Part shown: piece after piece, positions 13,665 through 30,588 of the stretch
How the letters are laid out: the number at the start of each line of letters is the position of its first letter
Numbering within the stretch: position 1 is the stretch's first letter
Assembly: GCA_030741355.1 (NCBI GenBank)
Contig: JASLVM010000006.1
Span: forward strand, 1 to 58,433
Direction: 5' to 3'
From: Poseidonia sp.
GTDB taxonomy: Archaea; Thermoplasmatota; Poseidoniia; Poseidoniales; Poseidoniaceae
Length of the DNA: 58,433 nucleotides
Notes under the pieces: model-generated
The model's database searches: none
What the model saw: the letters and a program-made list of their open reading frames with translations, nothing else
What the model was told of the DNA's origin: nothing
Position numbers and translations under genes: made by a program

Positions 13665-14384
13665 TTGGGCTGCCTCTTTGCCGCGGCCCTCACCGTCCCC
13701 GCTGGTTTCGGGCTTGCCACGATGACGACGCCACTGTTTCTGATTTGGTTTGAACCGCATCATGCCATCGCTGGAGTGGCCATCGTCCACGGGGCTCACA
13801 ACGCCATGAAATCCCGTATGCTCAGGCAGCATATCGATGGTGATGCTCTCCGCCGATTTGGCTGGGCCCTCCTCATCGGTGCTCTGATGGGCGCGCTTCT
13901 CCAAAGCGTCATTCCCCCCGACCCTCTTCTGCTCTTGGTGGGCATCGCTCTCATCGTCTTACCCGTCCTCAAAATCAGCGAATCATGGACGTCCATCCGC
14001 CTGCCAGAGGCTGAAGACCGCCTTGGCGGCCTTGGCTCTGGGTTTCTTGGCGGTTTGACCGGCCATCAGGGAGCGCTTCGTGCGATGTTTCTCAAACAAC
14101 GCCTCCCCGATAAATCAGAGTACGCAGCTACCGCCGCCGTCCTCGCGCTGGTGGTTGATGCGACGAGAATTCCGATCTATCTTTGGAACGATAGCACGGT
14201 TTTGACCGTCGATGCATGGTTGCTGGGAGGCTTTGTCATCGCCGCTCTCCTCGGTGCACAAATCGGTCGCATTTGGTTGGAAAAATGGAAGAGCGACGAC
14301 ATCCAAAAAGGGATCATGGTCGGTCTTGTTCTCTCTGGAGTGCTCTATGTCAGAGAGGCGCTTCTTGCCCTCTCATTGACGTGA
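13665..14384 (+). CDS. TauE/SafE (TSUP) family membrane transporter; start uncertain
   Basis: AGFGLAT, GSGFLGGLTGHQGALRAMFL, ~7-8 TM. Reading frame stays open upstream of the TTG without an in-frame ATG. Confidence 0.85.
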   Translation: MGCLFAAALTVPAGFGLATMTTPLFLIWFEPHHAIAGVAIVHGAHNAMKSRMLRQHIDGDALRRFGWALLIGALMGALLQSVIPPDPLLLLVGIALIVLPVLKISESWTSIRLPEAEDRLGGLGSGFLGGLTGHQGALRAMFLKQRLPDKSEYAATAAVLALVVDATRIPIYLWNDSTVLTVDAWLLGGFVIAALLGAQIGRIWLEKWKSDDIQKGIMVGLVLSGVLYVREALLALSLT

Positions 14385-16655: not shown

Positions 16656-17177
16656 GTGCCAAGGATTCAGCACGTGCGCGGGATTCCATCGGAGCCCTAT
16701 TTCCGAACCCGATATGCGGTGTTGCGAGAACCGTTGGGGATGCCGCTTGGCAGTGAACGCCTCAGTGACGACGATCAAGCTGTTCATGTTTGGGCGGAAA
16801 TTGACACCGTCATTGCCGCCGTGGGGCGCGCCCACATCATCCCTGGGGATTCGGACGGCTCTGGAGCCGATCACAAAGGACCGGGAGCAGCCCTCATCCC
16901 GCCTTTTGGGCCGCTCGCCGACGCTTCCGCTCAGAGGCCCGCCTTTCAAATCCGGCAGATGGGAACCCTCCCTGAGCATCAACGCCAAGGGCTCGCAGCG
17001 GCTGTGCTCGGGGAACTTGAACGACTCATGTTCACAGAATACGGCTGTAAAACTGGGCTTCTGCAAGCAAGGGAGCATGCCATTCAATTCTACGAATCGC
17101 AGGGCTGGTCGGTCATCGATGAACCGTATGATATCGGGATTATTGGGCCACACAGGTCCATGATGAAGCGATTTTGA
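16656..17177 (+). CDS. GNAT family N-acetyltransferase
   Basis: RYAVLREPLG, QIRQMGTLPEHQRQGLA (acetyl-CoA motif), LQAREHAIQFYESQGW, IGPHRSM. GTG start at 16656. Confidence 0.88.
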   Translation: MPRIQHVRGIPSEPYFRTRYAVLREPLGMPLGSERLSDDDQAVHVWAEIDTVIAAVGRAHIIPGDSDGSGADHKGPGAALIPPFGPLADASAQRPAFQIRQMGTLPEHQRQGLAAAVLGELERLMFTEYGCKTGLLQAREHAIQFYESQGWSVIDEPYDIGIIGPHRSMMKRF

Positions 17178-17371
17178 ACATCCAAAGTATATATCCTCTC
17201 AATCGTTCAAGTTAGCATCGGCAGTTTCCATAAACGCCCATTGAATGTTAAAATGAACACATAAGACGGAACAAAAAGATGGATTTGCGCCCGAAAGAGG
17301 GAGTAGAGATGAGATCAACACCATACATAAAGACAAAAGAAAATAAAACATCCAGCGCACAGGATAGAAAC

Positions 17372-18121
17372 ATGAAAGATTCTCGTTCATCGAGAAGTTA
17401 CGCAAAATCGCAGCCCGATTTTGATTATTACGTAGCGAAAAAATACAATTCCAAATCGGAAAAAGAACGAGATTTGTATTTCCAAAAATTACTCGAAGCG
17501 TTTCGAACGCTTTCCGAAGAAGCCCCAGAAGTCTTTGATTCCATTGCGCCAGAAATGCTTCAGCGAAGCATTTGGTCGTGGAGAGGCGCAGATCCCCTGC
17601 TCTCCAAGAAATTCAACAATTGGCTTCTAGCAGATTATCAATGGACGCCGTTCGACGAAATTTTACCGAAAGAATCGGCGAACCATCGCCCGCTGCAAGT
17701 GCCGCCGCTTGACCCGGAGCATCTCAATGAGGTGCACCATGCTTTGATTGAAGCTCTTCAAGATCGATTCCGAGGAGATCCACACCGATGGGACGCTTCT
17801 CGTCGAGACCAGTTTGTCATTCTCGGCATGATGGCAACCGCCGGCGGTTACGGTGTGCGTCAAGGAAAATTGATCCACAGCCTGGGCATGGGTCTTGCAG
17901 AGAGCGGCGTTCGAGGTGCAAACACGGTTCGAGCAGCTAAAATTGCCCTTTCTCGACTTGCGAAACCTTTCGGCCTGCAACTTTTCGCTCCAGCGGTTGG
18001 CAACGGCCCAGAACGTATTCACATGTTCAGTGATGATGAACTCGCTGAAGTCATCGCTCGCTACGTCTTCAATCACGACGCTTCGATTTTGCTTCCGGCA
18101 ACCAACGTCCCCGGTGTTTAG
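17372..18121 (+). CDS. Hypothetical protein
   Basis: Long ORF following an AT/A-rich region; start could be 17309 or 17372; no family recognised. Confidence 0.7.
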   Translation: MKDSRSSRSYAKSQPDFDYYVAKKYNSKSEKERDLYFQKLLEAFRTLSEEAPEVFDSIAPEMLQRSIWSWRGADPLLSKKFNNWLLADYQWTPFDEILPKESANHRPLQVPPLDPEHLNEVHHALIEALQDRFRGDPHRWDASRRDQFVILGMMATAGGYGVRQGKLIHSLGMGLAESGVRGANTVRAAKIALSRLAKPFGLQLFAPAVGNGPERIHMFSDDELAEVIARYVFNHDASILLPATNVPGV

Positions 18122-18225
18122 GCGTCGTTGGCTGGAGAATCAATTCATCGCGCCTTTCATATAGGGTAGGGCCCTTGAATAGGGCAGAGGGAACGCTGGG
18201 TTCCCTATGAACAACCCGTGAAAAA

Positions 18226-18376
18226 CGATGCAAACGGAGGATTTGAACAAGTCAATGTACAAGGAAAATGGAGAGAGGGACAGCGATTCTCCCTCAAGCC
18301 CCCCATCAATTGGAGGCCGACCAACCCTTGTACAAGATTTGGCGACTATTCATCCAATCCGCGAAGCGTTGCATCG
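18226..18376 (+). ncRNA. Candidate structured RNA / 5' leader element
   Basis: Nested helices: CGATGCAA(18226)/TTGCATCG(18369); CGGA/TCCG; GGAT..GAA..AGTC/GACT.TTCATCC; TGTACAAGG(18256)/CCTTGTACA(18326); apical hairpins GAGGGA/TCCCTC and TTGG/CCAA. Confidence 0.55.
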
Positions 18377-18477
18377 ATCCCAAACGCCGAAGCCCACCAC
18401 GTGCGCTTTGACATTGGAAAGAGAGAACAGCGGGTTCTCTATGTAAAACAACCAAAAACAAAGGAAGTGAAAAAAAC

Positions 18478-20022
18478 ATGAAGACGAAAATGATGAGCGT
18501 GCTATTGGCTTTGTTCCTCGCCCTTTCCGCTGTTTCGGCAGCCTCGGGTGATGGATCCGACCCCCTCGACCCCTCAGACGGCGGCGCCGACTGGGACGGC
18601 GATGGTTTGACCAACGCTGAGGAGCAATCCCAAGGCACCAACATGAACAATGCAGACAGCGATGGCGACGGTCTCCCAGACGGATGGGAGGTTTCGAACG
18701 GACTGAACCCCACCAACGGTGGCGATGGAAACGCAGACCCTGACGGAGATGGCTTGACCAACTCCCAAGAGTATGCCTCGGGTACCAACCCGAACAACGC
18801 CGACACCGACGGTGACGGCAAGTCCGACGCAACCGACCAGTTCCCCAACGACCCCAACGACGGTGAGTACTCCGACTCTGACGGTGACGGTATTCCTGAC
18901 GCTTACGACCCAGACTTCCAGGAGTCTGGAGCAGGCGCAGGTAACGGCGACACCGAGGGCGGCGGCGAATCCGACGCTGGAACACCAACTCCTGGACAAG
19001 GTCAGGGACAAGGTCAGGGACAAGGTCAAGGACAAGGTCAAGGACAAGGTCAAGGACAAGGTCAGGGACAAGGTCAAGGCCAAGGTCAACAACAAGGCCA
19101 AGGTCAAGGTCAGCAAGGTCAGCAAGGTCAGCAAGGTCAGCAAGGTCAGCAAGGCCAGCAAGGTCAGCAAGGCCAGCAAGGTCAGCAAGGCCAGCAAGGT
19201 CAGCAAGGCCAGCAAGGTCAACAGCAAGACAACGGCCAAGGTCAACAACAGCAAGGCGGTCAACAAGGCGGCCAGCAAGGTGACCAGACCAGCCAAGACC
19301 AGAACGGTCAGAACCAGAACGGTCAGAACGAGCAACAGCAAGGTCAGACGCAGAACGGACAGCAGGGTCAACAAGGCCAGCAATCCGATCAGCAACAAGG
19401 CCAGCAGCTCGGCAACCAGGACGAGAACGACAACGATGGCGATGGTATCCCGAACGACGTCGACAACGACGACGACAACGACGGTATCCCCGACTCCGTC
19501 GATGATTCACCAATGGATCACGACAATGACGGCACCGACGATTTCGAGGATGATGACGCTGATGGCGACGGCATCGACGACCGCGAGGAAGTGAACGATG
19601 GCGACCCCAACACCAACATCTACGACCACGACAACGACGGCATCTCCGATGCTGTTGACTTGGACATCGACAACGATGGCATTGACAACCGAAATGACAT
19701 TGGCGACATGGGCGAAGACCTGTCCCGAGACCACGACAACGATGGTATGGACGACGCTGAAGACGACGACGATGACAACGACAACATCCTCGATGTTGAC
19801 GAAATCGACGGCGTTGCCGGAAGCTACCGCTACGACCATGACAACGATGGCATTTGGGATCTTACCGACAACGATGACGACAACGACGGTCTTATGGACT
19901 GGTTTGAAGTCAACGATGGCAACGATCTCACGGGTCAATTCGACGCTGACAACGACGGAACCGATGATTACGAGGACGACGACGACGATAACGACGGCAT
20001 CCTCGACATCTACGAACTCTGA
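18478..20022 (+). CDS. Secreted thrombospondin type-3-like Ca-binding repeat protein with central Gln/Gly low-complexity region
   Basis: Signal peptide; DxDGDGLxDxxE..GTNP repeats; (GQ)n and (QQG)n tract; C-terminal DHDNDG..DxDDDNDG repeats; no C-terminal anchor. Confidence 0.92.
   Translation: MKTKMMSVLLALFLALSAVSAASGDGSDPLDPSDGGADWDGDGLTNAEEQSQGTNMNNADSDGDGLPDGWEVSNGLNPTNGGDGNADPDGDGLTNSQEYASGTNPNNADTDGDGKSDATDQFPNDPNDGEYSDSDGDGIPDAYDPDFQESGAGAGNGDTEGGGESDAGTPTPGQGQGQGQGQGQGQGQGQGQGQGQGQGQGQGQQQGQGQGQQGQQGQQGQQGQQGQQGQQGQQGQQGQQGQQGQQGQQQDNGQGQQQQGGQQGGQQGDQTSQDQNGQNQNGQNEQQQGQTQNGQQGQQGQQSDQQQGQQLGNQDENDNDGDGIPNDVDNDDDNDGIPDSVDDSPMDHDNDGTDDFEDDDADGDGIDDREEVNDGDPNTNIYDHDNDGISDAVDLDIDNDGIDNRNDIGDMGEDLSRDHDNDGMDDAEDDDDDNDNILDVDEIDGVAGSYRYDHDNDGIWDLTDNDDDNDGLMDWFEVNDGNDLTGQFDADNDGTDDYEDDDDDNDGILDIYEL
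18994..19218 (+). repeat. Coding microsatellites: ~16 x GQ (6 nt) then 12 x QQG (cagcaaggy)
   Basis: ggncar units at 18994-19089 and cagcaagg(t/c) units at 19111-19218, read directly. Confidence 0.95.
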
Positions 20023-20121: not shown

Positions 20122-20251
20122 ATTGTAAATCGAAGGGTATCGACGTTCTTTCGTGTTGATACGCAGAGTGTTCTGTGATACGCAACCGCACAATCGCGCC
20201 AAGCCCTTGAAATAGGGTATTTTGGTGGAGAGGTGATTACGAGGTGCCCGC

Positions 20252-23200
20252 ATGCTGTCAAAACAACACACTCAAAAAATCGAAGAGCGACAACAACTCT
20301 CCATGGCCATTATCATCGTGTTTTTGATGCTGGCCAGCAGCCTCCTCGCCATTGTCCAGACCGTTCACGACGGACCAGAAGCCACCAAAGCGACTCAACT
20401 TGTTGACGGCGGGAGCCTCGGCATGACCCCCATCCAATCCACGGACCAAGGCGGCCAAGGTGGATGGGACGGCGTCCACGACAGTCATTATGACATGGCT
20501 CACGAAGCCCTGAGGGACCTCATGTGGTCGGACCCAGGCGTTTCCGCTGGTGTCATCGTTGACCTTTCCGTTCTCGAAGCTGCCATCCCCTCGTATTCCA
20601 CCTTCCTCGAAGAAACCCGGGCCGGCGACCACGACAACGACGGTATCGACGACCTTGCCGACCTCGACGACGATAACGATGGCATCTACGACTTGCTTGA
20701 GCGATTCGACGGATGTTACGGAACCGACCCATACGACCACGACAACGATGGCATTCTCGATGTTGATGATTGGGACGATGACAACGACGGCATCCTCGAA
20801 GGGCCCATTGATTACGCCGCTCTTGAGGCGCAGGGCCTTGACCCACGAAACGTGTCCACCGACCGCTACCTCGACCCGACCATCGACCACCCTCACCCCG
20901 ACATCGGGGCCATTGGCAACTTCTACCTCGCGGACCAGAACCCCATGGACCACGACAACGATGGCGTGACCGACGAAGACAATGACGGTGCAGGCCCCGG
21001 CCGGTACGATGAGGACGACGACAACGACGGCCGGATCGACCAATTCACGTGGCCTTGCGATTTGGATTCGGACGGAATTTCGGACTACTTCGACGCCGAT
21101 GACGACAACGACGGCGTTCTTGACGTTGAGGACGCCCACCCCTACGACGCCAGCATCACCACTCAAATGTCTACGACGGCTTCTCTCTACGATGCCTCCC
21201 GACTTTGGACGTTCAACGAATACCGCCAATACTCTGGCGGCGTTGATTATGTTGACTGGGAGCGTAACAGAGTAAACGCTCAGGGCGCTACAGCCTCGGG
21301 CTTCTTCGGCGGCCTCGATGACCTCATCGAATTGAGTGACTCCCATGGCACTCCTGCTTTCATCAACATTGTTGACGGCGACCTCGATGGTGACGGCTCC
21401 CCCAACTTCCTCGACCCGGACAACGACAACGACGGTACGCCGGATTCGGCTGACACCGACGATGACAACGACGGCATTCTTGACATGGTTGACCCCGACG
21501 ATGACAACGACGGCATCCCCGATACGTGCGTTGAAATTGACACCAACGGCGACCAGACCAGCGATTACACCGGGCTTCAGAACGGGGCTGTGACAGGATT
21601 CACCATCTCGACGGGTGGCGCGAACTACAACAGCGGCACCGATGTTGCGACGGCGAACGCAGGGAGCACTGGAACCGGGTTGACCGTTGACATCACGACC
21701 ACGGCAGGCGCCATCACGAACGCCGTCATCAACCGGGCAGGTTCCGGATACAGCGTCGGCGACATCGTGACCGTCAACGGTGGCGATTCCAAGGGCAACT
21801 TGACCATCACGAGTGTTTCGACCGCTATTTTCGAACTTCCGGGTGGAGACGGTGATGGCGACGGGCAAATCGATTGTGAAATCGATTATGACGGCGATCT
21901 CGACGACGATATTCGTCGGCCGTTTGACCAGAACTACAACGGCATCTACGACTGGCTCGACACCGACATGGGTGGAACGACCTCCCCCGACAATCTCGGC
22001 AACTTTGCCGTTGGTGGCGCTGACATCCCGTACGATTTGGACAACGATAACATCGAGAACGAAAACGACTCGTTCCCGCTGAACACCGCGGCGGAAGTTT
22101 CCACTTGGAACTGCCCTACGCAAGCCAACCCCAACCCCACCAACCCCGACCCACGATGTCAAACCCGCCGCGCCTCTTTCTCACAATTCAACGATTGGGA
22201 CGGCGACGGTATCAGCAACTGGGACGATGTTGACGACGACAACGACGGCATCATCGACGTCTTGGACATCGACTGGGACTGTGACCTCGATAACGACAAC
22301 GACCTCCACCAAATCAACGGTGGGTTGTACCGGGACGATGGGCCCAATGATGTGGATTCTGACGTGGACGGAGACGGCCTTGAGAACAGCATTGACTGGG
22401 ACGACGACAACGACGGCATCGCCGACCTCTTCGACCCCGATGACGGAAATTGCGGCATCGTTGATTTCGACGCCACCGACGCCTTCGGCACACCTTACTA
22501 TCCTGTGAACGACGGTGGCGCCCTCGATGGGTCCAGCGACAGTCAACTCTACGATACCAACTCCACCGACCACTGGAACTTGGTGTTCCAGCACTACCCC
22601 TTCGCCGATGTGGTCCTCAACTACAACGGCTACGACTCAACCACCAACCCTCCCACACCAGGTATCGTGCCTGAATTCTACTGGTTCCTCTTCGCTCGTT
22701 GGTCGCCCTACAACGGCGGTAACGACTGGGATATTGATTCGGATGGTGATTCCCTCATCAACGGCTTGGACATCGATCAAGACGCCGACGGGATGCCCGA
22801 TTGGTGGGACCAAGACGAAGGAAACGACGGTGTTTTGGATGTTGAGGACGTCAAGATGGGCGGTTCATTCGACCTTTCAACCTGCGGTTGGACGGCAGGA
22901 AACCTCGGGCAAGGCTTTGTTTGCGGCTACGCCTATGCGCTCGCATACAAGATGCCGCTCAACGGCGTCAACGCTCAGTTTGGTGCTCCTTACTCCACCC
23001 GGCCAGACGCTGCCTTTGACCAAGGCGCCACCGCCGGAGGTCCGTCAGGCAATTGGAGCTGCACTCCGGTTGAAGGCATCGGCTGCTGGCACTACGACTT
23101 CGGTGGCGACGGCACCATTGACTCTGCCATCACCTACACTCAGATGACCGATAACCGAGACGCATTCAACTCCTGGATTGGTTTGACCACTGGCATCTGG

Positions 23201-26200
23201 CAGTGGAACAGTGACAACGGCCCCGAAGCCGACTTCCCCGATGAATTGGGAGCCGACCTCCTGAAGAACGATGTCGATGGAGACGTTGACGGTGACTTCA
23301 CCAACTCCACCATCGATTTGGACGATGATTACGACTCCATCTTCGACTGGTTTGACGTGGATGACGACAACGACGGTGTATGGGATTACTTTGAGGTTGA
23401 CAGTAACTTCGACCTCGACGACGACACCGGCCAAAACAACGGGAACTTCTTCTCCGGGTCCAACTGCGATGACAACGACGATGACGGAAACGACGCAGAC
23501 GCCGATGACGACGGCTTCTACCAAGCGGTTTGGGACCAAGGAATCATGTCCCAAGGCCTTCGCCAACCAACCCTCTATGACGTTGACAACGACAACGACG
23601 CCATCCCTGACGGGGAAGATCCCGACGACGATAACGACGGTCGTTTGGATGTTGACCAAGAACGCCTCCCCGGTTGTTTCTGGGGCGAAGAACAGTCCAC
23701 ATGGGACAACGACAACGACGGTATCGTGAACTGGGCTGATGATGACTGGGACGGCGATGGCTTGACCAACGCTGCTGAACTTCTTGTGAGCATCACGGCG
23801 CCGTTTGACCACGACAACGATGGCGTCCGCGACGACCTTGACGAAGACGACGATGAAGATGGCATGCACGACGAAGACGAAGTGTTGCTTTGGCCCACTC
23901 GCTTCGACCGCAATTCCACCAACCCGTGGGACCACGACGACTTTGGCGACGGGGAAGCGCTTGCGAACCCGCTCGATGACTCGACGGGACCGGACGCTAT
24001 CGACAACGATGACGACAACGATACTCGAATCGACGTGGACTTTGACCAAACGGAGGACACCGAATTGACCTCTGACTGGGACAGCGACAACGACGGCATC
24101 TTGGACGCAGACGACAAGGCACCCACCTACATCACGCTCAATCTCCCCGATAACCTGTGGCTTGACGCACAAAGCCCAACCATCTTTGCCGGGCATGTTG
24201 ACTGGTTGAACCCGGTTACCGGCGTGGTTGAAGCGGCACCGCAACTTCCGGTTCAGGTGCACATCGAATGGGCGGACAACCAAACCACGGCTGTTGAAAC
24301 GATTGACGTCTTGACCAACGCAGCTGGAAACTTCAGCGTCGGACAATTCCTCTATCCCGAAGATTTGACGGTGGGCGATAACACGACTTACCGCGTCTAC
24401 GCAGAAGTGACGGAGATGTTCCTGTTCAACGGAAACGAGTCGCAGTCCTACTATGTCGGTGCTGAGGCCAACATGACCGTCGATTACTCGGCGTGGACCT
24501 ACTTCCGCAGCGATGAGCAACCGTTCTGGCTTGACTTCAAGGCCCACTATGCCGCTGACTGGGACCGAGGATTGTTTGACAACCGAATCAAGAACTCCCC
24601 CATCACCTTCTCCATCTTCGGTGGACTGTTTGGCAACCTAACCGCCCCCACCAACTTCACCGGTTTGGGTAACAACGGCTACCGAACGGACGCTTCCGGA
24701 TGGGCTTCACTCACCTTCGTTCAGGACTTGGGTATCGCTGGCACATGGAAGCAAGTGCAGTGGAATTCCACCGCCGACAACGGCGTTGGCCAAATCCCGG
24801 GTGGCTACGAAGAAATCGGATGGAACGATTTGACCAAGCAGCATGACGTGGTCCTCGACGGCGACGGCAACCCGTTGCGGTACAATTACACCAACACGAG
24901 TCTACCCGCAGGCGACATCGAAATCATTGCGCGTGTTTCACCCGAATTGGCGAACGAATGGCCGTTCCCGTTCCTGAATGGCGACGAGGCTGAACCGTTC
25001 TCTGTTCGCATCATGCACCGCATGAACATCGAGGGAACGCTGATCGTTGATGGCCTGAGCCCGATTTACTACTACGACTCCACCGTCAACAACGGTGACG
25101 GAACCTTTGGCGACTGGTCGACTCTGTTCCATCAGCCTGCACTGACCGCAGCCGGTGTCAACTACAACGATGTGGCCGCCTTCAAACCGTATCCAAAATC
25201 ATGGGACGGTACGCCAGAAGGTTTGACCGGTCAAGCAGCAGCTCTCCGACCGTTCCTCACTGGAAACGGCAGCCACTGGTTCATCGCTTTGGTGAACGGC
25301 GGCGACAGCAACCTGCCGCCTTGTGGACCTGTGGACCGAACGGACCCCAACAGCCCTGTTCGCTGTGAGATTGTCCCCGAAATGAACACGGGCGAATCTC
25401 TCCAAGTCGTTGGAAAGGTCACCAACCGCACCAACGAACCGTGGGACCAAGACCCGATCGCTCTGCAAGTTGACGTTGACAAGAACGGCCAATTCCTCGG
25501 CGCTGGTGAGACGGCTTACACGCAACGCCCCATCATGAAGGACGGCGATGCAGCCTACGATTACAACTGGTCTTGGTTCAGCCAATACGGTGCTGGAACC
25601 TACGGGCTCCGTGTCGACTTCACCAACTCTGCCTACTACTTCACCGGCAACTCATCGACGTTGGCTCCAACGGGTGCGTACATCAACGTCACCGTGGTCG
25701 GTACCACCGACTTCCAGACAACCTCGTTGCCTCGCCTTTACAGGAACACCAACACCACCATTCAGGCGAAGTTGGTTGACAATTCACTTCAACCGGTTCG
25801 AAACGCTCCGGTCAACTACACCTGGTCCTTTGACGGACGCACGGGCGTGAACTTCACAGACAACAACGGTTTCTTCGAAATTCCGTTCAATGTTTCCGCC
25901 ACCGACGACCTTGGCAACTTCACCTTGCAGTTCGAATACTCCGGAACATCACTCCTCAAAGGAACCTCAGTGAGTCAGTCGGTCTGGGTCGTATCTCGGA
26001 CCTACATGCAGGTGATTTCAACCGAAGACAACCTGCGGCGTTCGGGTGATAAATGGGATTTCACCGCTCAAGTATCGGACGATAACAAGACGAGTATACG
26101 GGATTCAGGAGGCACAGCGCTTTCAGGTTCCGAAACGCCTTACGGCGGTTTGGTTGATGTCATCTTCGAAGGCACGGACTTCCAAGGCACGTTGCACCGA

Positions 26201-28354
26201 CAGGTCGTGGCTACACTGGCGCCGAATGCCGGTGTGATTTCGCTTCCAGAAGTTGAACCGGATGGTTCCCACCTCTGTTTCTACGACGGCAACGGCGACA
26301 ACATCCCCGACCGAGACATCGACGGTGATGGTTTGGAGGTCGAGGAAACCGTTGGATGTTTGAAGTCCAACATTTCACCACTCAACCCCGCCTTGCTACG
26401 AGCCGACCCCGAATCCTTCTTGCCGAATGGATTTGGTCCAGTGAACGTGATTTTGCGATTCCAAGAGACGCTGCCCAATGAGGGCTGTCAACCACTTGAC
26501 GTCAGCTACCTTGGCATTCAAGGAGCATGGGACCCGTGTACTCAAATTCCTGGAAACGACCACTTCCGACTTACGATGACCAACAACGCCAACGGCTTCA
26601 ACCTCATTGGCCGCACCGTCATGTCGGTTGACGACCAAATTGTCTACACCAGCGAAATCGACCCGCTTACGGGTGAAGTCGTTCCCAAGCCAATGATCGT
26701 CACCGGGCAACTCAGCGATGAGTTGGGCGTGAACCTGACCGATCGAAGCATCCGCGTCAATTACGAGATGGTGAACGGTCAAACCGGTCCCGTCGCATGT
26801 CAATCCGGCACCACCAACGCTGACGGTTACTTCTCCATCATCTGTCCGCTCTCGGACGTGATGGCTGGTAAAGCCAAGGTGACGGTCTCGTACTCGGCTT
26901 ACGACAACAACGACGCCTACCGATACGAGAACAAGACGGTCCAAACCGAGTTCGACGTCTTCTCCAACTCTACGTTGCAGATCACCGAAGTTGGGCCGTT
27001 CAAGTCCAGCGTTGACCAGTGGGTTGCTCCGAACGGTTCTCGCTATCCAGTGTTGTACCTGAAGGAGTCGTTCCACATCGACGCGTTCCTCGCTCAGTCC
27101 AACGGACAGGCGGTTGGCGGTAAGTGTCTCAACATCTACCTCGACCCCGATGAGAACGTTCGCCCGCTTGCCACGGTTCGCACCAGCGACATCGATGGAA
27201 GCGTGGAATGGTTCAGCGGCGACCCTGTGCAAAACCCAACCTTGCGAGGCGTGGAAACCACCGGTGGTAAACTGGAAGGTTTCCGTACGCTCCAAGTGGC
27301 GTTTGAGCCCGACCGGAACATCCCCGGAGGTTGTGATAAGGACAGCAGTAACGCTCTGAACGGTTCAGCCATGAACATCGAAGTTCTCGTTCGTTCACGG
27401 GTTGACCTGCAAGTCAAGCAGACCTGGAGCAATAGCGGCGCCAACGGCGCCGATGAAGGCGACCTCATCACAGGACAAATCGCCCTCCTGCGCGACCGTC
27501 TTGACCTCGCTGTTGAGAACGAAGAAGTCATCTTCGCCTACGAATTCTTTGATGATGAAACCGGCACATGGGTTGTCTCTGATTTGAACAACAAGACCCG
27601 AACCAACGAGCAAGGTATTGCCTCCTTTGAATGGAGTTTCGTTGGTCAGAGTTGCGATGGAAACCCGTGTTCCGGTGTTTGGCGAATCACGGCCTATTAC
27701 CCCGGGTCGACGTACTTTGCACCATCACAGGACAACATCACGCACGAAATCACCTACAAGAAGGCCGAAGCCTTGGGCGACGCCAGTGGTTTGTTCAGCC
27801 CGAGCAACCTGATTGGTTTCGCCATCGTCTTGATGGCCTTGTTGATTGCAGGTGCGATCTATTACCAGCGAGTTCAGCAACAACGCCAGGTCCAAGCGCT
27901 CCGTGGTATTCTGACCGATGCCATGATGCAACTTGAAGCCAGCAACGAATACATTGCTGCCATCTTCGACTGCTACAAGAGCCTCGTGAAGCACTTCAAG
28001 AAATACGGCTTCATGAAGAAGGTCTACGAAACAGCACGTGAGTTTGAAGCGGCTGTCCGTTCGGCCTTCAACATGGTGCCTGTTGACCAATTGGATGACT
28101 TCCTGTCCATCTTTGAAGAAGCCCGATACTCCGAGCACACCATCGACGCAACGCATCGAGACCGTGCGCTGCAAACCCTCGGTGCCATCACCAACTCCTT
28201 GACGATGGCTCTGGGCGAAGAGTCGGTGGTCAAGCGCATCGATGCGACCAGCATTTACGACAACCTGACCAAGGCCGGCGAATTCGTCGCAGCAGACGGT
28301 TCAGTCCGCCAGGCTGGTATGGTTGAAGGCGAGAACACGGACTTCAAGATTTGA
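20252..28354 (+). CDS. 2700-aa surface protein: DHDNDG/TSP3-like repeats, Ig-like beta-sandwich stalk, TM, cytoplasmic DUF4129-like domain
   Basis: N-terminal signal/TM; ~1200 aa of Asp-rich repeats; beta-rich regions with TDxNG motifs; TM IGFAIVLMALLIAGAIYY; YKSLVKHF..ETAREF..IFEEARYSEH is DUF4129-like; GAGGTG RBS. Confidence 0.9.
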   Translation: MLSKQHTQKIEERQQLSMAIIIVFLMLASSLLAIVQTVHDGPEATKATQLVDGGSLGMTPIQSTDQGGQGGWDGVHDSHYDMAHEALRDLMWSDPGVSAGVIVDLSVLEAAIPSYSTFLEETRAGDHDNDGIDDLADLDDDNDGIYDLLERFDGCYGTDPYDHDNDGILDVDDWDDDNDGILEGPIDYAALEAQGLDPRNVSTDRYLDPTIDHPHPDIGAIGNFYLADQNPMDHDNDGVTDEDNDGAGPGRYDEDDDNDGRIDQFTWPCDLDSDGISDYFDADDDNDGVLDVEDAHPYDASITTQMSTTASLYDASRLWTFNEYRQYSGGVDYVDWERNRVNAQGATASGFFGGLDDLIELSDSHGTPAFINIVDGDLDGDGSPNFLDPDNDNDGTPDSADTDDDNDGILDMVDPDDDNDGIPDTCVEIDTNGDQTSDYTGLQNGAVTGFTISTGGANYNSGTDVATANAGSTGTGLTVDITTTAGAITNAVINRAGSGYSVGDIVTVNGGDSKGNLTITSVSTAIFELPGGDGDGDGQIDCEIDYDGDLDDDIRRPFDQNYNGIYDWLDTDMGGTTSPDNLGNFAVGGADIPYDLDNDNIENENDSFPLNTAAEVSTWNCPTQANPNPTNPDPRCQTRRASFSQFNDWDGDGISNWDDVDDDNDGIIDVLDIDWDCDLDNDNDLHQINGGLYRDDGPNDVDSDVDGDGLENSIDWDDDNDGIADLFDPDDGNCGIVDFDATDAFGTPYYPVNDGGALDGSSDSQLYDTNSTDHWNLVFQHYPFADVVLNYNGYDSTTNPPTPGIVPEFYWFLFARWSPYNGGNDWDIDSDGDSLINGLDIDQDADGMPDWWDQDEGNDGVLDVEDVKMGGSFDLSTCGWTAGNLGQGFVCGYAYALAYKMPLNGVNAQFGAPYSTRPDAAFDQGATAGGPSGNWSCTPVEGIGCWHYDFGGDGTIDSAITYTQMTDNRDAFNSWIGLTTGIWQWNSDNGPEADFPDELGADLLKNDVDGDVDGDFTNSTIDLDDDYDSIFDWFDVDDDNDGVWDYFEVDSNFDLDDDTGQNNGNFFSGSNCDDNDDDGNDADADDDGFYQAVWDQGIMSQGLRQPTLYDVDNDNDAIPDGEDPDDDNDGRLDVDQERLPGCFWGEEQSTWDNDNDGIVNWADDDWDGDGLTNAAELLVSITAPFDHDNDGVRDDLDEDDDEDGMHDEDEVLLWPTRFDRNSTNPWDHDDFGDGEALANPLDDSTGPDAIDNDDDNDTRIDVDFDQTEDTELTSDWDSDNDGILDADDKAPTYITLNLPDNLWLDAQSPTIFAGHVDWLNPVTGVVEAAPQLPVQVHIEWADNQTTAVETIDVLTNAAGNFSVGQFLYPEDLTVGDNTTYRVYAEVTEMFLFNGNESQSYYVGAEANMTVDYSAWTYFRSDEQPFWLDFKAHYAADWDRGLFDNRIKNSPITFSIFGGLFGNLTAPTNFTGLGNNGYRTDASGWASLTFVQDLGIAGTWKQVQWNSTADNGVGQIPGGYEEIGWNDLTKQHDVVLDGDGNPLRYNYTNTSLPAGDIEIIARVSPELANEWPFPFLNGDEAEPFSVRIMHRMNIEGTLIVDGLSPIYYYDSTVNNGDGTFGDWSTLFHQPALTAAGVNYNDVAAFKPYPKSWDGTPEGLTGQAAALRPFLTGNGSHWFIALVNGGDSNLPPCGPVDRTDPNSPVRCEIVPEMNTGESLQVVGKVTNRTNEPWDQDPIALQVDVDKNGQFLGAGETAYTQRPIMKDGDAAYDYNWSWFSQYGAGTYGLRVDFTNSAYYFTGNSSTLAPTGAYINVTVVGTTDFQTTSLPRLYRNTNTTIQAKLVDNSLQPVRNAPVNYTWSFDGRTGVNFTDNNGFFEIPFNVSATDDLGNFTLQFEYSGTSLLKGTSVSQSVWVVSRTYMQVISTEDNLRRSGDKWDFTAQVSDDNKTSIRDSGGTALSGSETPYGGLVDVIFEGTDFQGTLHRQVVATLAPNAGVISLPEVEPDGSHLCFYDGNGDNIPDRDIDGDGLEVEETVGCLKSNISPLNPALLRADPESFLPNGFGPVNVILRFQETLPNEGCQPLDVSYLGIQGAWDPCTQIPGNDHFRLTMTNNANGFNLIGRTVMSVDDQIVYTSEIDPLTGEVVPKPMIVTGQLSDELGVNLTDRSIRVNYEMVNGQTGPVACQSGTTNADGYFSIICPLSDVMAGKAKVTVSYSAYDNNDAYRYENKTVQTEFDVFSNSTLQITEVGPFKSSVDQWVAPNGSRYPVLYLKESFHIDAFLAQSNGQAVGGKCLNIYLDPDENVRPLATVRTSDIDGSVEWFSGDPVQNPTLRGVETTGGKLEGFRTLQVAFEPDRNIPGGCDKDSSNALNGSAMNIEVLVRSRVDLQVKQTWSNSGANGADEGDLITGQIALLRDRLDLAVENEEVIFAYEFFDDETGTWVVSDLNNKTRTNEQGIASFEWSFVGQSCDGNPCSGVWRITAYYPGSTYFAPSQDNITHEITYKKAEALGDASGLFSPSNLIGFAIVLMALLIAGAIYYQRVQQQRQVQALRGILTDAMMQLEASNEYIAAIFDCYKSLVKHFKKYGFMKKVYETAREFEAAVRSAFNMVPVDQLDDFLSIFEEARYSEHTIDATHRDRALQTLGAITNSLTMALGEESVVKRIDATSIYDNLTKAGEFVAADGSVRQAGMVEGENTDFKI

Positions 28355-30510: not shown

Positions 30511-30588
30511 GGGCCCGTGGGTTAGCTTGGCCTATACTTGGCGGCTGGGGGCCGTCAGACCCCGGTTCAAATCCGGGCGGGCCCACCA
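30511..30588 (+). tRNA. tRNA-Pro (GGG), CCA encoded
   Basis: GGGCCCG/CGGGCCC acceptor, GGCGG-CTGGGGG-CCGTC anticodon arm, CCCGG-TTCAAAT-CCGGG T-arm, ACCA end. Confidence 0.96.

Follow-up and report, generated by a model that had tools for sequence, protein, structure and literature searches.

Which function resides in the gap between two protein genes of the archaeon Poseidonia sp., where an initial annotation of the DNA had proposed a cis-regulatory RNA? We addressed this question in a 58,433-nt stretch (contig JASLVM010000006.1 of assembly GCA_030741355.1), referred to as the window. All coordinates are positions in this window, and "the order" stands for the Poseidoniales (Marine Group II, MG-II). 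The gap separates an open reading frame (ORF) at 17279-18121, which has an unassigned function and no Pfam match, from a 514-aa ORF at 18478-20022. Our results indicate, with high confidence, that the element in this gap is a structured RNA of the + strand that acts in cis as the 5' leader of a surface-protein mRNA. The initial annotation had rightly recognized a long leader; its length is ~290 nt (~18186 to 18477, with the 5' end deduced from TATA spacing) rather than ~270 nt. The leader carries two copies of one hairpin, hp1 and hp2, with a multi-helix core between them (Table 1). The cis-regulatory reading therefore stands insofar as a conserved structured RNA precedes a highly expressed surface-protein gene, but the leader is not purely non-coding, since a small open reading frame (sORF) running through it is kept open across the order.

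BLAST searches with 18122-18477 gave matches in 47 of 61 relatives, and two blocks were 80-100% identical even in other families. These blocks are the two copies of the hairpin, hp1 (AGGGAAC-N5-GTTCCCT) and hp2 (AGAGAAC-N5-GTTCTCT). The second had been described in the initial annotation and is confirmed at 18422-18440; the first, at 18188-18206, had been missed. The exact pattern AGRGAACN5GTTCYCT was found in 302 of 401 sampled genomes of the order (60 of the 67 that are at least 90% complete) and in 24 of 26 genera. A genome usually carries two copies of it; a reversed-pattern control gave at most one match per genome and none in most. In a phylum-wide sample, 19 of 24 genomes of the order carried the pattern, and outside the order single matches of mixed type occurred in 2 of 126 genomes. 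The genome to which the window belongs (1.97 Mb, 127 contigs, 88.7% complete) contains no exact match apart from the two in this leader.

Folding of 18171-18477 gave a minimum free energy (MFE) of -91.2 kcal/mol, as compared with -73.9 +/- 6.1 kcal/mol for 100 dinucleotide shuffles (z = -2.86), none of which was as stable. All the nested helices named in the initial annotation were located in the sequence, and the MFE fold has the same nested architecture. For a comparison with relatives, we used an ortholog set of 76 loci with both hairpins; four places had been fetched twice, leaving 72 distinct sequences. Four further loci were dropped because a filter requiring a loop ending in GG found no hairpin pair in them. 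With the hairpins excluded, the inter-hairpin core had z < 0 in 72 of the 72 distinct orthologs and z < -2 in 53, with a mean of -2.84 (40 dinucleotide shuffles). The MFE folds follow a shared plan in three families. Helix P1 is followed by a long interrupted stem, P2/P3, ending in a junction with two hairpins, and then by a mini-hairpin, TCCC, stem-loop P5, GGAAAG and hp2. P1 is a long-range helix that has the sORF start codon in its 5' strand, and an equivalent helix is formed by other sequences in the other families.

The pairing of the core is supported by covariation. For P3 and P4, we used a sequence-only MAFFT alignment of seven genus orthologs nearly equal in length; the structure was derived from the same sequences, which somewhat favors it. 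In this alignment, 89% of the cells were paired, vs. 35-50% when the partner strand was slid by 1-3 columns. Double changes were seen in 18 of 29 pairs (P3 9/10, P4a 4/4, P4b 4/5), and 0 of 500 shuffles reached the observed pairing or covariation. The closing pair of the mini-hairpin is C-G in three of the seven sequences, U-A in three and unpaired in one, and another group has AGC-GCAA-GCU at this place. A covariance model of the P5 base and hp2 matched 74 of 74 loci. Two basal pairs of P5 are variable, with counts of GC 32/AU 29/GU 5 and AU 27/GC 20/UA 8, and the covariation score of P5, in an alignment fitted to the model, was 0.195 as compared with at most 0.045 for slid partners; again, 0 of 500 shuffles reached it. 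In an alignment-free test of own versus cross partners, the own partner of the inner stem was within the top 10% of partners for 25 of 39 lineages and ranked first for 11. The same test was weaker for P1, with the own partner in the best 10% in 16 of 39 lineages. Thus, both the excess stability over dinucleotide shuffles and the covariation among orthologs that the initial annotation had anticipated were found.

RNAalifold on a 22-sequence MAFFT alignment recovered only the hairpins and P5. It missed the middle helices because the hypervariable core was misaligned, and for the same reason it found no structure in 12 sequences from the family's other genera. The P2-P4 junction regions are hypervariable, with a mean column identity of 68-70% even within the genus, where the invariant columns are the hairpins, the start region, GGAGGA and TCCC. 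The GGAGGA box is present in nearly all loci of all three families (variants GGAGA, GGGGG and GGAGC) and is complementary to CCUCC of the genome's own 16S rRNA 3' end. A local hairpin CCGU/ACGG around the sORF start was rejected as a conserved feature, since it is invariant in the genus but not kept elsewhere. We found no conserved alternative pairing and no terminator/antiterminator pair in the leader.

The 5' end of the leader was deduced from the promoter. The initial annotation had placed a TATA-like box at 18175, but TTGAATAGGG at 18176 is unconserved, and the conserved TATA box is TTCATATA, further upstream. In all three families, the first base of a TATA-like box (TTCATATA, TTGAAATA or CTAAATA) lies ~30 nt (29-30) upstream of the AGAG before hp1. 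Based on this spacing, transcription would start at ~18186, and hp1 would begin with the third nucleotide of the RNA. Among the aligned genus orthologs, no conserved TATA box was found before hp2 or before 18478. The tiny ORF encoding MNNP, which had been noted near the expected start, is present and is kept in most of the genus; in other genera it is lost, with AAGACC or AGACTA in place of ATGAAC.

The gene downstream of the leader encodes a 514-aa protein with a signal peptide, bacterial TSP3 repeats (Pfam TSP3_bac, E = 1.2e-10) and a long GQ-repeat region. It is the highly expressed MG-II "collagen-like cell surface protein". Its Shine-Dalgarno site GGAAGTGA is complementary at 8 of 9 positions to the genome's own 16S rRNA 3' end. 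The predicted mean unpaired probability is 0.68 at this site, 0.46 at the sORF site and 0.39 over the whole leader, in line with the unstructured A-rich run before the start codon that had been described earlier. Of the 16S rRNA gene, the genome contains only a 3' fragment, located where a contig begins (G000 C68 1-590, L210), and the 3' end reads GGATCACCTCCT. Many relatives' contigs end 530-900 nt downstream of the element, where the GQ-repeat DNA begins (19003-19400 in the window); the repeat apparently breaks short-read assemblies.

Published and assembled transcript data were then compared with the deduced leader. Hou et al. 2016 (PMC5069720) report that 93% of the euryarchaeal RNA-seq reads derive from 13 mRNAs encoding disordered proteins, which include the collagen-like family. 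In Table S5 of that paper, the ortholog of the main gene ranks among the top MG-II mRNAs and is listed without a transcription start site (TSS) of its own. For two fosmids, the table gives a TSS located 369 nt before the 3' end of a small hypothetical gene that immediately precedes the collagen-like gene (PMC5069720). The RNA-seq coverage given there is 6 for the small upstream gene vs. 489-630 for the main gene, i.e., ~100-fold lower (PMC5069720). Seawater metatranscriptome contigs from four studies cover the main gene, and three of them reach its 5' end. These stop 27 nt before hp2, 1-2 nt after hp2 (adapter-joined) and at 18461 (adapter-joined). A 398-nt contig of a relative spans the hp1 region at a depth of 4.45, as compared with 89 for the contig of the coding sequence (CDS) in the same run. 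Scanning metagenome contigs for hp1 yielded 119 stretches, many of them chance palindromes (non-marine), with no pile-up of contig ends at the hairpin. Taken together, the transcript data fit, but do not prove, a scheme in which leader and main gene are transcribed jointly from a single promoter and the mature mRNA, far more abundant, starts near hp2.

The same data bear on whether the leader is a molecule in its own right. A stand-alone or processed small RNA of ~255 nt (18186-18440) could serve as a regulatory RNA or a protein scaffold, possibly with a dual function through the sORF, while the main gene is read through or processed off. Such a unit would be bounded by two like hairpins and conserved in shape throughout the order, as observed; contigs of the main mRNA do end near hp2, and the read levels in Table S5 of PMC5069720 are very different for the upstream gene and the main gene. 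However, the element always lies directly upstream of the same gene, no second conserved promoter precedes 18478, and one metatranscriptome contig is continuous from P5 through hp2 into the CDS. Moreover, the read level that the published table gives for the upstream part is low, not high. We therefore regard an independent small RNA as unlikely.

The hairpins themselves pose the question of whether they are read as RNA or as DNA. The hp1 stem AGGGAAC/GTTCCCT is intact in 70 of the 76 loci, with a G.U variant in three and an A.A mismatch in three. The hp2 stem AGAGAAC/GTTCTCT is intact in 67, with two G.U variants (three loci), a compensatory A-U variant (one locus) and an A.A mismatch in five. 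The mismatch occupies the same stem position in both, in hp1 of genus g24 and in hp2 of genus g25 (GTACTCT), and its presence in 8 of 76 loci speaks against perfect pairing. Stability alone cannot assign the strand, since the minus strand of the region folds even better relative to shuffles (z = -3.84). The substitutions are more informative. All one-sided stem changes (GAGGAC/GUUCUC, GAGAAC/GUUUUC and GGGAAC/GUUCCU) give G.U pairs on the + strand, and one lineage has the compensatory pair GAAAAC/GUUUUC. The G.U variants in hp1, hp2 and P5 fit the + strand only, which argues for a + strand RNA. The GG of the loop, which is also present at all paired sites in the unfiltered pattern listing, is found on one strand only.

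Alternatively, the palindromes AGRGAAC-N5-GTTCYCT could be operators for a dimeric transcription factor, with hp1 as a repressor site at the start and hp2 as a second site, an arrangement that would be compatible with an RNA role elsewhere in the leader. Invariant half-sites around a variable spacer are in keeping with this idea, as is the position of hp1 (not hp2) as an inverted repeat at +3 to +21 of the deduced start, overlapping the promoter region. In genus g11, moreover, the same palindrome occurs near the TATA-like box of a T2SSE-family ATPase gene, with the loop in either orientation. A DNA-binding dimer would not readily account for the symmetric difference between hp1 (G-C) and hp2 (A-U) at one pair, which is kept throughout the order, or for the one-sided variants, of which three of three kinds are G.U-compatible on the + strand, next to a compensatory variant in hp2 alone. 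The one-stranded GG is likewise at odds with it, and hp2 lies ~235 nt inside the transcript, where it adjoins the covarying RNA stem P5. The hp1-hp2 spacing ranges from 172 to 327 bp across loci, and therefore no fixed helical phase is possible. A purely DNA-level role of the hairpins appears rather improbable.

What the initial annotation had also overlooked is the persistence of the 72-aa frame, which remains open among relatives and starts at a fixed position. In the genus, the frame is open in 25 of 25 loci; it begins with the conserved ATG and ends with a TAA 3 nt past hp2, and all ten length classes are in frame (multiples of three, allowing 1-nt indels upstream of the ATG). Throughout the order, it is open across the whole inter-hairpin region in 71 of 76 loci. 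The core alone is open in 68 of the 72 distinct sequences, as compared with 23.0 expected from dinucleotide shuffles, and in 40 of 43 clusters (binomial P ~7e-17, an approximate value that treats the clusters as independent). A start codon lies at hp1+38 to +46 in 67 loci (ATG 55, GTG 6, TTG 6); four loci have an open frame without a start in this interval, and five have no open frame. The stop falls 0-10 nt after hp2 in 64 of these 67 loci and ~31-35 nt before the main start, and the sORF length ranges from 59 to 103 codons. The sORF start is preceded, at a distance of 6 nt, by a GUGA box with complementarity to the 16S rRNA 3' end of this genome, GGAUCACCUCCU, and CCGTGA is widely conserved.

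With regard to the encoded peptide, the substitution pattern is unlike that of a protein gene. Substitutions at codon positions 1/2/3 were counted in 37 close pairs, after removal of same-cluster pairs whose sORFs differ in length (three such pairs involve L003/L004-L006). The counts were 311/293/304 (34/32/33%) for the sORF vs. 45/20/404 (10/4/86%) for the first 150 codons of the main gene, so the conservation does not follow the codon pattern of the 72-aa ORF, as the initial annotation had supposed for an RNA. The codon changes in the sORF were non-synonymous in 608 cases and synonymous in 116. The inter-hairpin core (18245-18415 and orthologs) diverges 1.8 times faster than the third positions of the main gene (35 pairs with main-gene sequence; the pairs are not independent). 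Codon-usage constraint on the neighboring gene, recombination, or diversifying change in the leader could underlie this fast divergence. The reading frame through hp2 differs by family (C-terminal ERENSGFS vs. GKREQRVL), as does that through GGAGGA (E-[ED] vs. G-G). Since hp2 and GGAGGA are read in different frames, both are conserved as nucleotides. In the hypervariable peptide, we found no conserved regulatory codons, no arrest peptide of the SecM/MifM/VemP type, no signal peptide and no membrane segment. There was no Pfam match, and a protein search returned two relatives only, unnamed or hypothetical (one from "Euryarchaeota archaeon").

These results leave little room for an ordinary small protein gene, that is, a fast-evolving, probably disordered protein of 59-103 aa that is co-expressed with the surface protein and for which the fold is secondary. 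The frame, open in 71 of 76 loci, the fixed start and the Shine-Dalgarno-like GUGA 6 nt ahead of it would suit such a gene, and gene callers predicted it at least twice, plus on the two fosmids listed in the published table. It is contradicted by the even distribution of substitutions over the codon positions, by the 608 non-synonymous vs. 116 synonymous changes, by the family-dependent frames through hp2 and GGAGGA, and by the sparse database record. In genus g25 (L070-L074), the long frame is lost in four of five loci through a mutated start or early stops, while the fold is kept (z -1.0 to -3.4). A protein-coding function as the primary one is thus quite improbable. We read the open frame as a sign of selection on translation of the leader, probably not on its product, and as secondary to the RNA fold.

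A riboswitch-like sensor that responds to a cation (the example given in the initial annotation), a metabolite or temperature and thereby controls translation of the sORF or the main gene is very improbable: it could draw on the multi-stem junction, on the long-range P1 holding the sORF start codon and on the Ca-binding TSP3 repeats in which the downstream protein is rich, but the helices are free in sequence and the junctions and loops unconserved, in contrast to aptamers, which retain their core nucleotides; conservation is mostly confined to hairpin stems and Shine-Dalgarno-like boxes, the ribosome-binding site of the main gene is predicted to be open (0.68) and not occluded, the sORF start is only half closed, no Rfam riboswitch matched, and no conserved alternative pairing was found, CCGU/ACGG not being kept outside the genus.

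With the above results in hand, the best explanation as a whole is a leader acting in cis on the surface-protein mRNA, whose stability, processing and translation it would control, and we hold this reading with roughly even confidence; the mechanism is our proposal, and its stability and processing part is put forward tentatively. Transcription would start at the AGAG at ~18186, so that hp1 forms a 5'-terminal stem-loop that may shield the transcript from 5'-end-dependent decay. The module of P5 and hp2 may mark or protect the 5' end of a processed and far more abundant mature mRNA. One protein, either a binder or an endonuclease, could recognize both hairpins in a sequence-specific manner. 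Ribosomes translating the sORF through the folded domain would cover or remodel the leader and would be delivered next to the main start.

Several observations weigh against this proposal. The start at ~18186 is deduced from TATA spacing only. The transcript evidence consists of assembled contigs with three different ends, which are unreliable for starts, and an adapter junction also occurs inside the CDS. The core (18248-18409) was uncovered at >=90% identity in four RNA runs; since the core is hypervariable and the data are contigs, the level is not readable. The 369 nt given in the published table exceeds the distance from hp1 to the sORF stop in the loci of family f3 (239-272 nt) by ~100 nt. 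A hairpin 5' of a cleavage site protects the upstream product, and therefore a contig end right after hp2 fits the idea of a protective cap poorly. For the sORF start, the accessibility predicted from the fold is no more than moderately low (0.42-0.46), too intermediate a value to speak for or against its sequestration. Genus g25, which has lost the sORF and carries the A.A mismatch in hp2, keeps the fold, and so translation is not universally required. Finally, a DNA operator would likewise be expected to show invariant stems around a variable loop.

Copies of the hairpin or its module were also seen at a few other places. In genus g11, a third copy, AGGGAAC-CTATG-GTTCCCT, lies 58 nt upstream of the T2SSE-family (pilus/archaellum-type) ATPase gene mentioned above, close to the TATA-like box. 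It is found at L084 1501-1519 (G052:C102) and also in L085 and L086, and is flanked by an inverted repeat ACACTA/TAGTGT; in one genome its loop is inverted with respect to the gene. A module resembling P5 and hp2 (TCCC-stem-GGATAG-hairpin; TCCC...GGATAGAGGGAACAGCGGGTTCCCT) was seen in G046 (genus g3) at L211 395-470 (G046:C6 ~13795-13870), ahead of the cluster's second gene for a secreted protein with TSP3 repeats. The stop of the first gene is followed there by a strong GC hairpin, CCTCCGGGGGC...GCCCCCGGAGG (L211 267-291). The next gene of the window, which encodes a 2700-aa surface protein (20252-28354), has its own TATA box TTGAAATAGGG at 20207, a strong Shine-Dalgarno site GAGGTGAT and a short leader without the hairpin module.

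The recurrence of the hairpin 5' of surface-related genes suggests a sequence-specific trans-acting partner, and it also keeps the DNA-level alternative alive. In a bolder form, the hairpin AGRGAAC-N5-GUUCYCU could be a tag that marks the 5' regions of cell-surface genes (collagen-like, second TSP3, T2SSE ATPase) for recognition by an RNA-binding protein or endonuclease dedicated to it in the Poseidoniales. Linked to this, the domain between the tags would be a new kind of translated RNA element, in which shape and frame are selected while the sequence evolves at or above the neutral rate. We offer this extension as a speculation that is more doubtful than not.

Table 1. Positions of the leader elements and flanking features in the window.
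Feature	Position	Strand	Remarks
Promoter CGCG...TTCATATAGGGT	18149..18167	+	Invariant in 22/22 aligned genus orthologs
TATA box TTCATATA	18156-18163	+	Conserved; within promoter 18149..18167
hp1: AG + AGGGAAC-GCTGG-GTTCCCT	18186..18206 (hairpin 18188-18206)	+	7-bp hairpin at the deduced RNA 5' end
Tiny ORF MNNP* (ATGAACAACCCGTGA)	18207-18221	+	Contains GTGA box 18218-21, putative Shine-Dalgarno site of the sORF
P1, 5' strand CGATGCAA	18226..18233	+	Includes sORF start codon; pairs with 18369-18376 (MFE fold)
sORF, 72 codons	18228..18446	+	From inside helix P1 to TAA 3 nt past hp2
GGAGGA box	18236..18241	+	Shine-Dalgarno-like; partly paired in P2
P3, TGTACAAGG 18256-18264 / CCTTGTACA 18326-18334	18256..18334	+	Encloses P4a and P4b
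Junction hairpins P4a and P4b	18275-18295 and 18298-18317	+	Inside P3
Mini-hairpin CGC-GAA-GCG	18360..18368	+	
P1, 3' strand TTGCATCG	18369..18376	+	Partner of 18226-18233
P5 stem-loop	18378..18421	+	TCCC (18378-81) to GGAAAG (18416-21); basal helix CCAA 18380-83 / TTGG 18414-17
hp2: AG + AGAGAAC-AGCGG-GTTCTCT	18420..18440 (hairpin 18422-18440)	+	Near-copy of hp1
A-rich spacer	18441..18477	+	Conserved; with main-gene Shine-Dalgarno site GGAAGTGA (18463-70)
Main gene	18478..20022	+	Secreted protein with TSP3 repeats and GQ-repeat region; Pfam TSP3_bac

Comparison with known RNA families agreed with the earlier statement that the element matches no tRNA, signal recognition particle (SRP) RNA, RNase P RNA or known riboswitch. 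Rfam 15 gave two chance-level matches only (15.9 bits each) for 17000-19500 at E <= 10, and none in the element for six orthologous loci from three families. At the gathering score, the whole window contained two tRNAs only. A tRNA-Pro(GGG) was called by ARAGORN at 30511-30588 and is absent from the matches of the Rfam tRNA model at that score. SRP RNA and RNase P RNA were excluded, since the same genome carries its archaeal SRP RNA on contig C127 (Archaea_SRP, 128 bits) and its RNase P RNA on contig C50 (RNaseP_arch, 232 bits).

Tan1 ("Thalassoarchaea ncRNA 1"), an abundant 229-nt non-coding RNA (ncRNA) of MG-II described by Hou et al. 2016 (PMC5069720), was considered as well. The sequence printed in Table S5 has repeats of the GGGAAAC type and lacks AGRGAAC-N5-GTTCYCT, as judged by reading and not by alignment (PMC5069720), and Tan1 was therefore rejected. 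It resembles the leader in its organism group, its similar length and its complex predicted structure, but it differs in sequence, and the published table and text consulted do not report it as adjoining the collagen-like gene. Tan1 was the only MG-II ncRNA that we found in the literature searched. The leader is not described in that literature, a search from which subscription journals and preprint supplements were left out.

As far as the searches show, no cis-acting RNA element spanning the whole lineage had been described for MG-II, and the leader would be the first. It would also add a rare example from the archaea of a leader that is long, structured and translated, located before one of the most highly expressed genes of MG-II. 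It offers a testable handle on post-transcriptional control in archaea, namely 5'-end protection, processing and the way an upstream open reading frame (uORF) is coupled to the main gene. With its invariant hairpins and a core that differs even among closely related genomes, the locus is a natural strain marker. In addition, it is a natural experiment in the compensatory evolution of RNA helices under the simultaneous constraint of an open frame.

Two kinds of known systems are close to the MG-II leader. Long structured 5' leaders occur in bacterial and archaeal surface-layer mRNAs, and 5'-terminal stem-loops are credited with the long half-life of slpA-type mRNAs. The MG-II leader shares with them its length, its position before a very highly expressed surface gene, a stem-loop at most 2 nt from the deduced 5' end and an unstructured ribosome-binding site. 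Unlike these, it spans ~290 nt with a five-helix domain, a duplicated hairpin of invariant sequence and an embedded ORF, all kept order-wide.

The second kind comprises leader peptides and uORFs whose translation, rather than product, matters, as in attenuation leaders and in termination-reinitiation coupling. The sORF is similar in that it would lie upstream on the same transcript, encodes an unconstrained peptide, stops ~31-35 nt before the main start and starts inside a helix. It differs from classical leader peptides in being far longer (59-103 codons), in having no regulatory codons and no terminator/antiterminator that we could find, and in running through a conserved multi-stem fold. 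The leader is a new RNA family that belongs, in kind, among structured mRNA leaders and translated uORFs. Its combination of features is unusual: the bounding hairpins are invariant, and the core between them is conserved in shape and reading frame, not in sequence.

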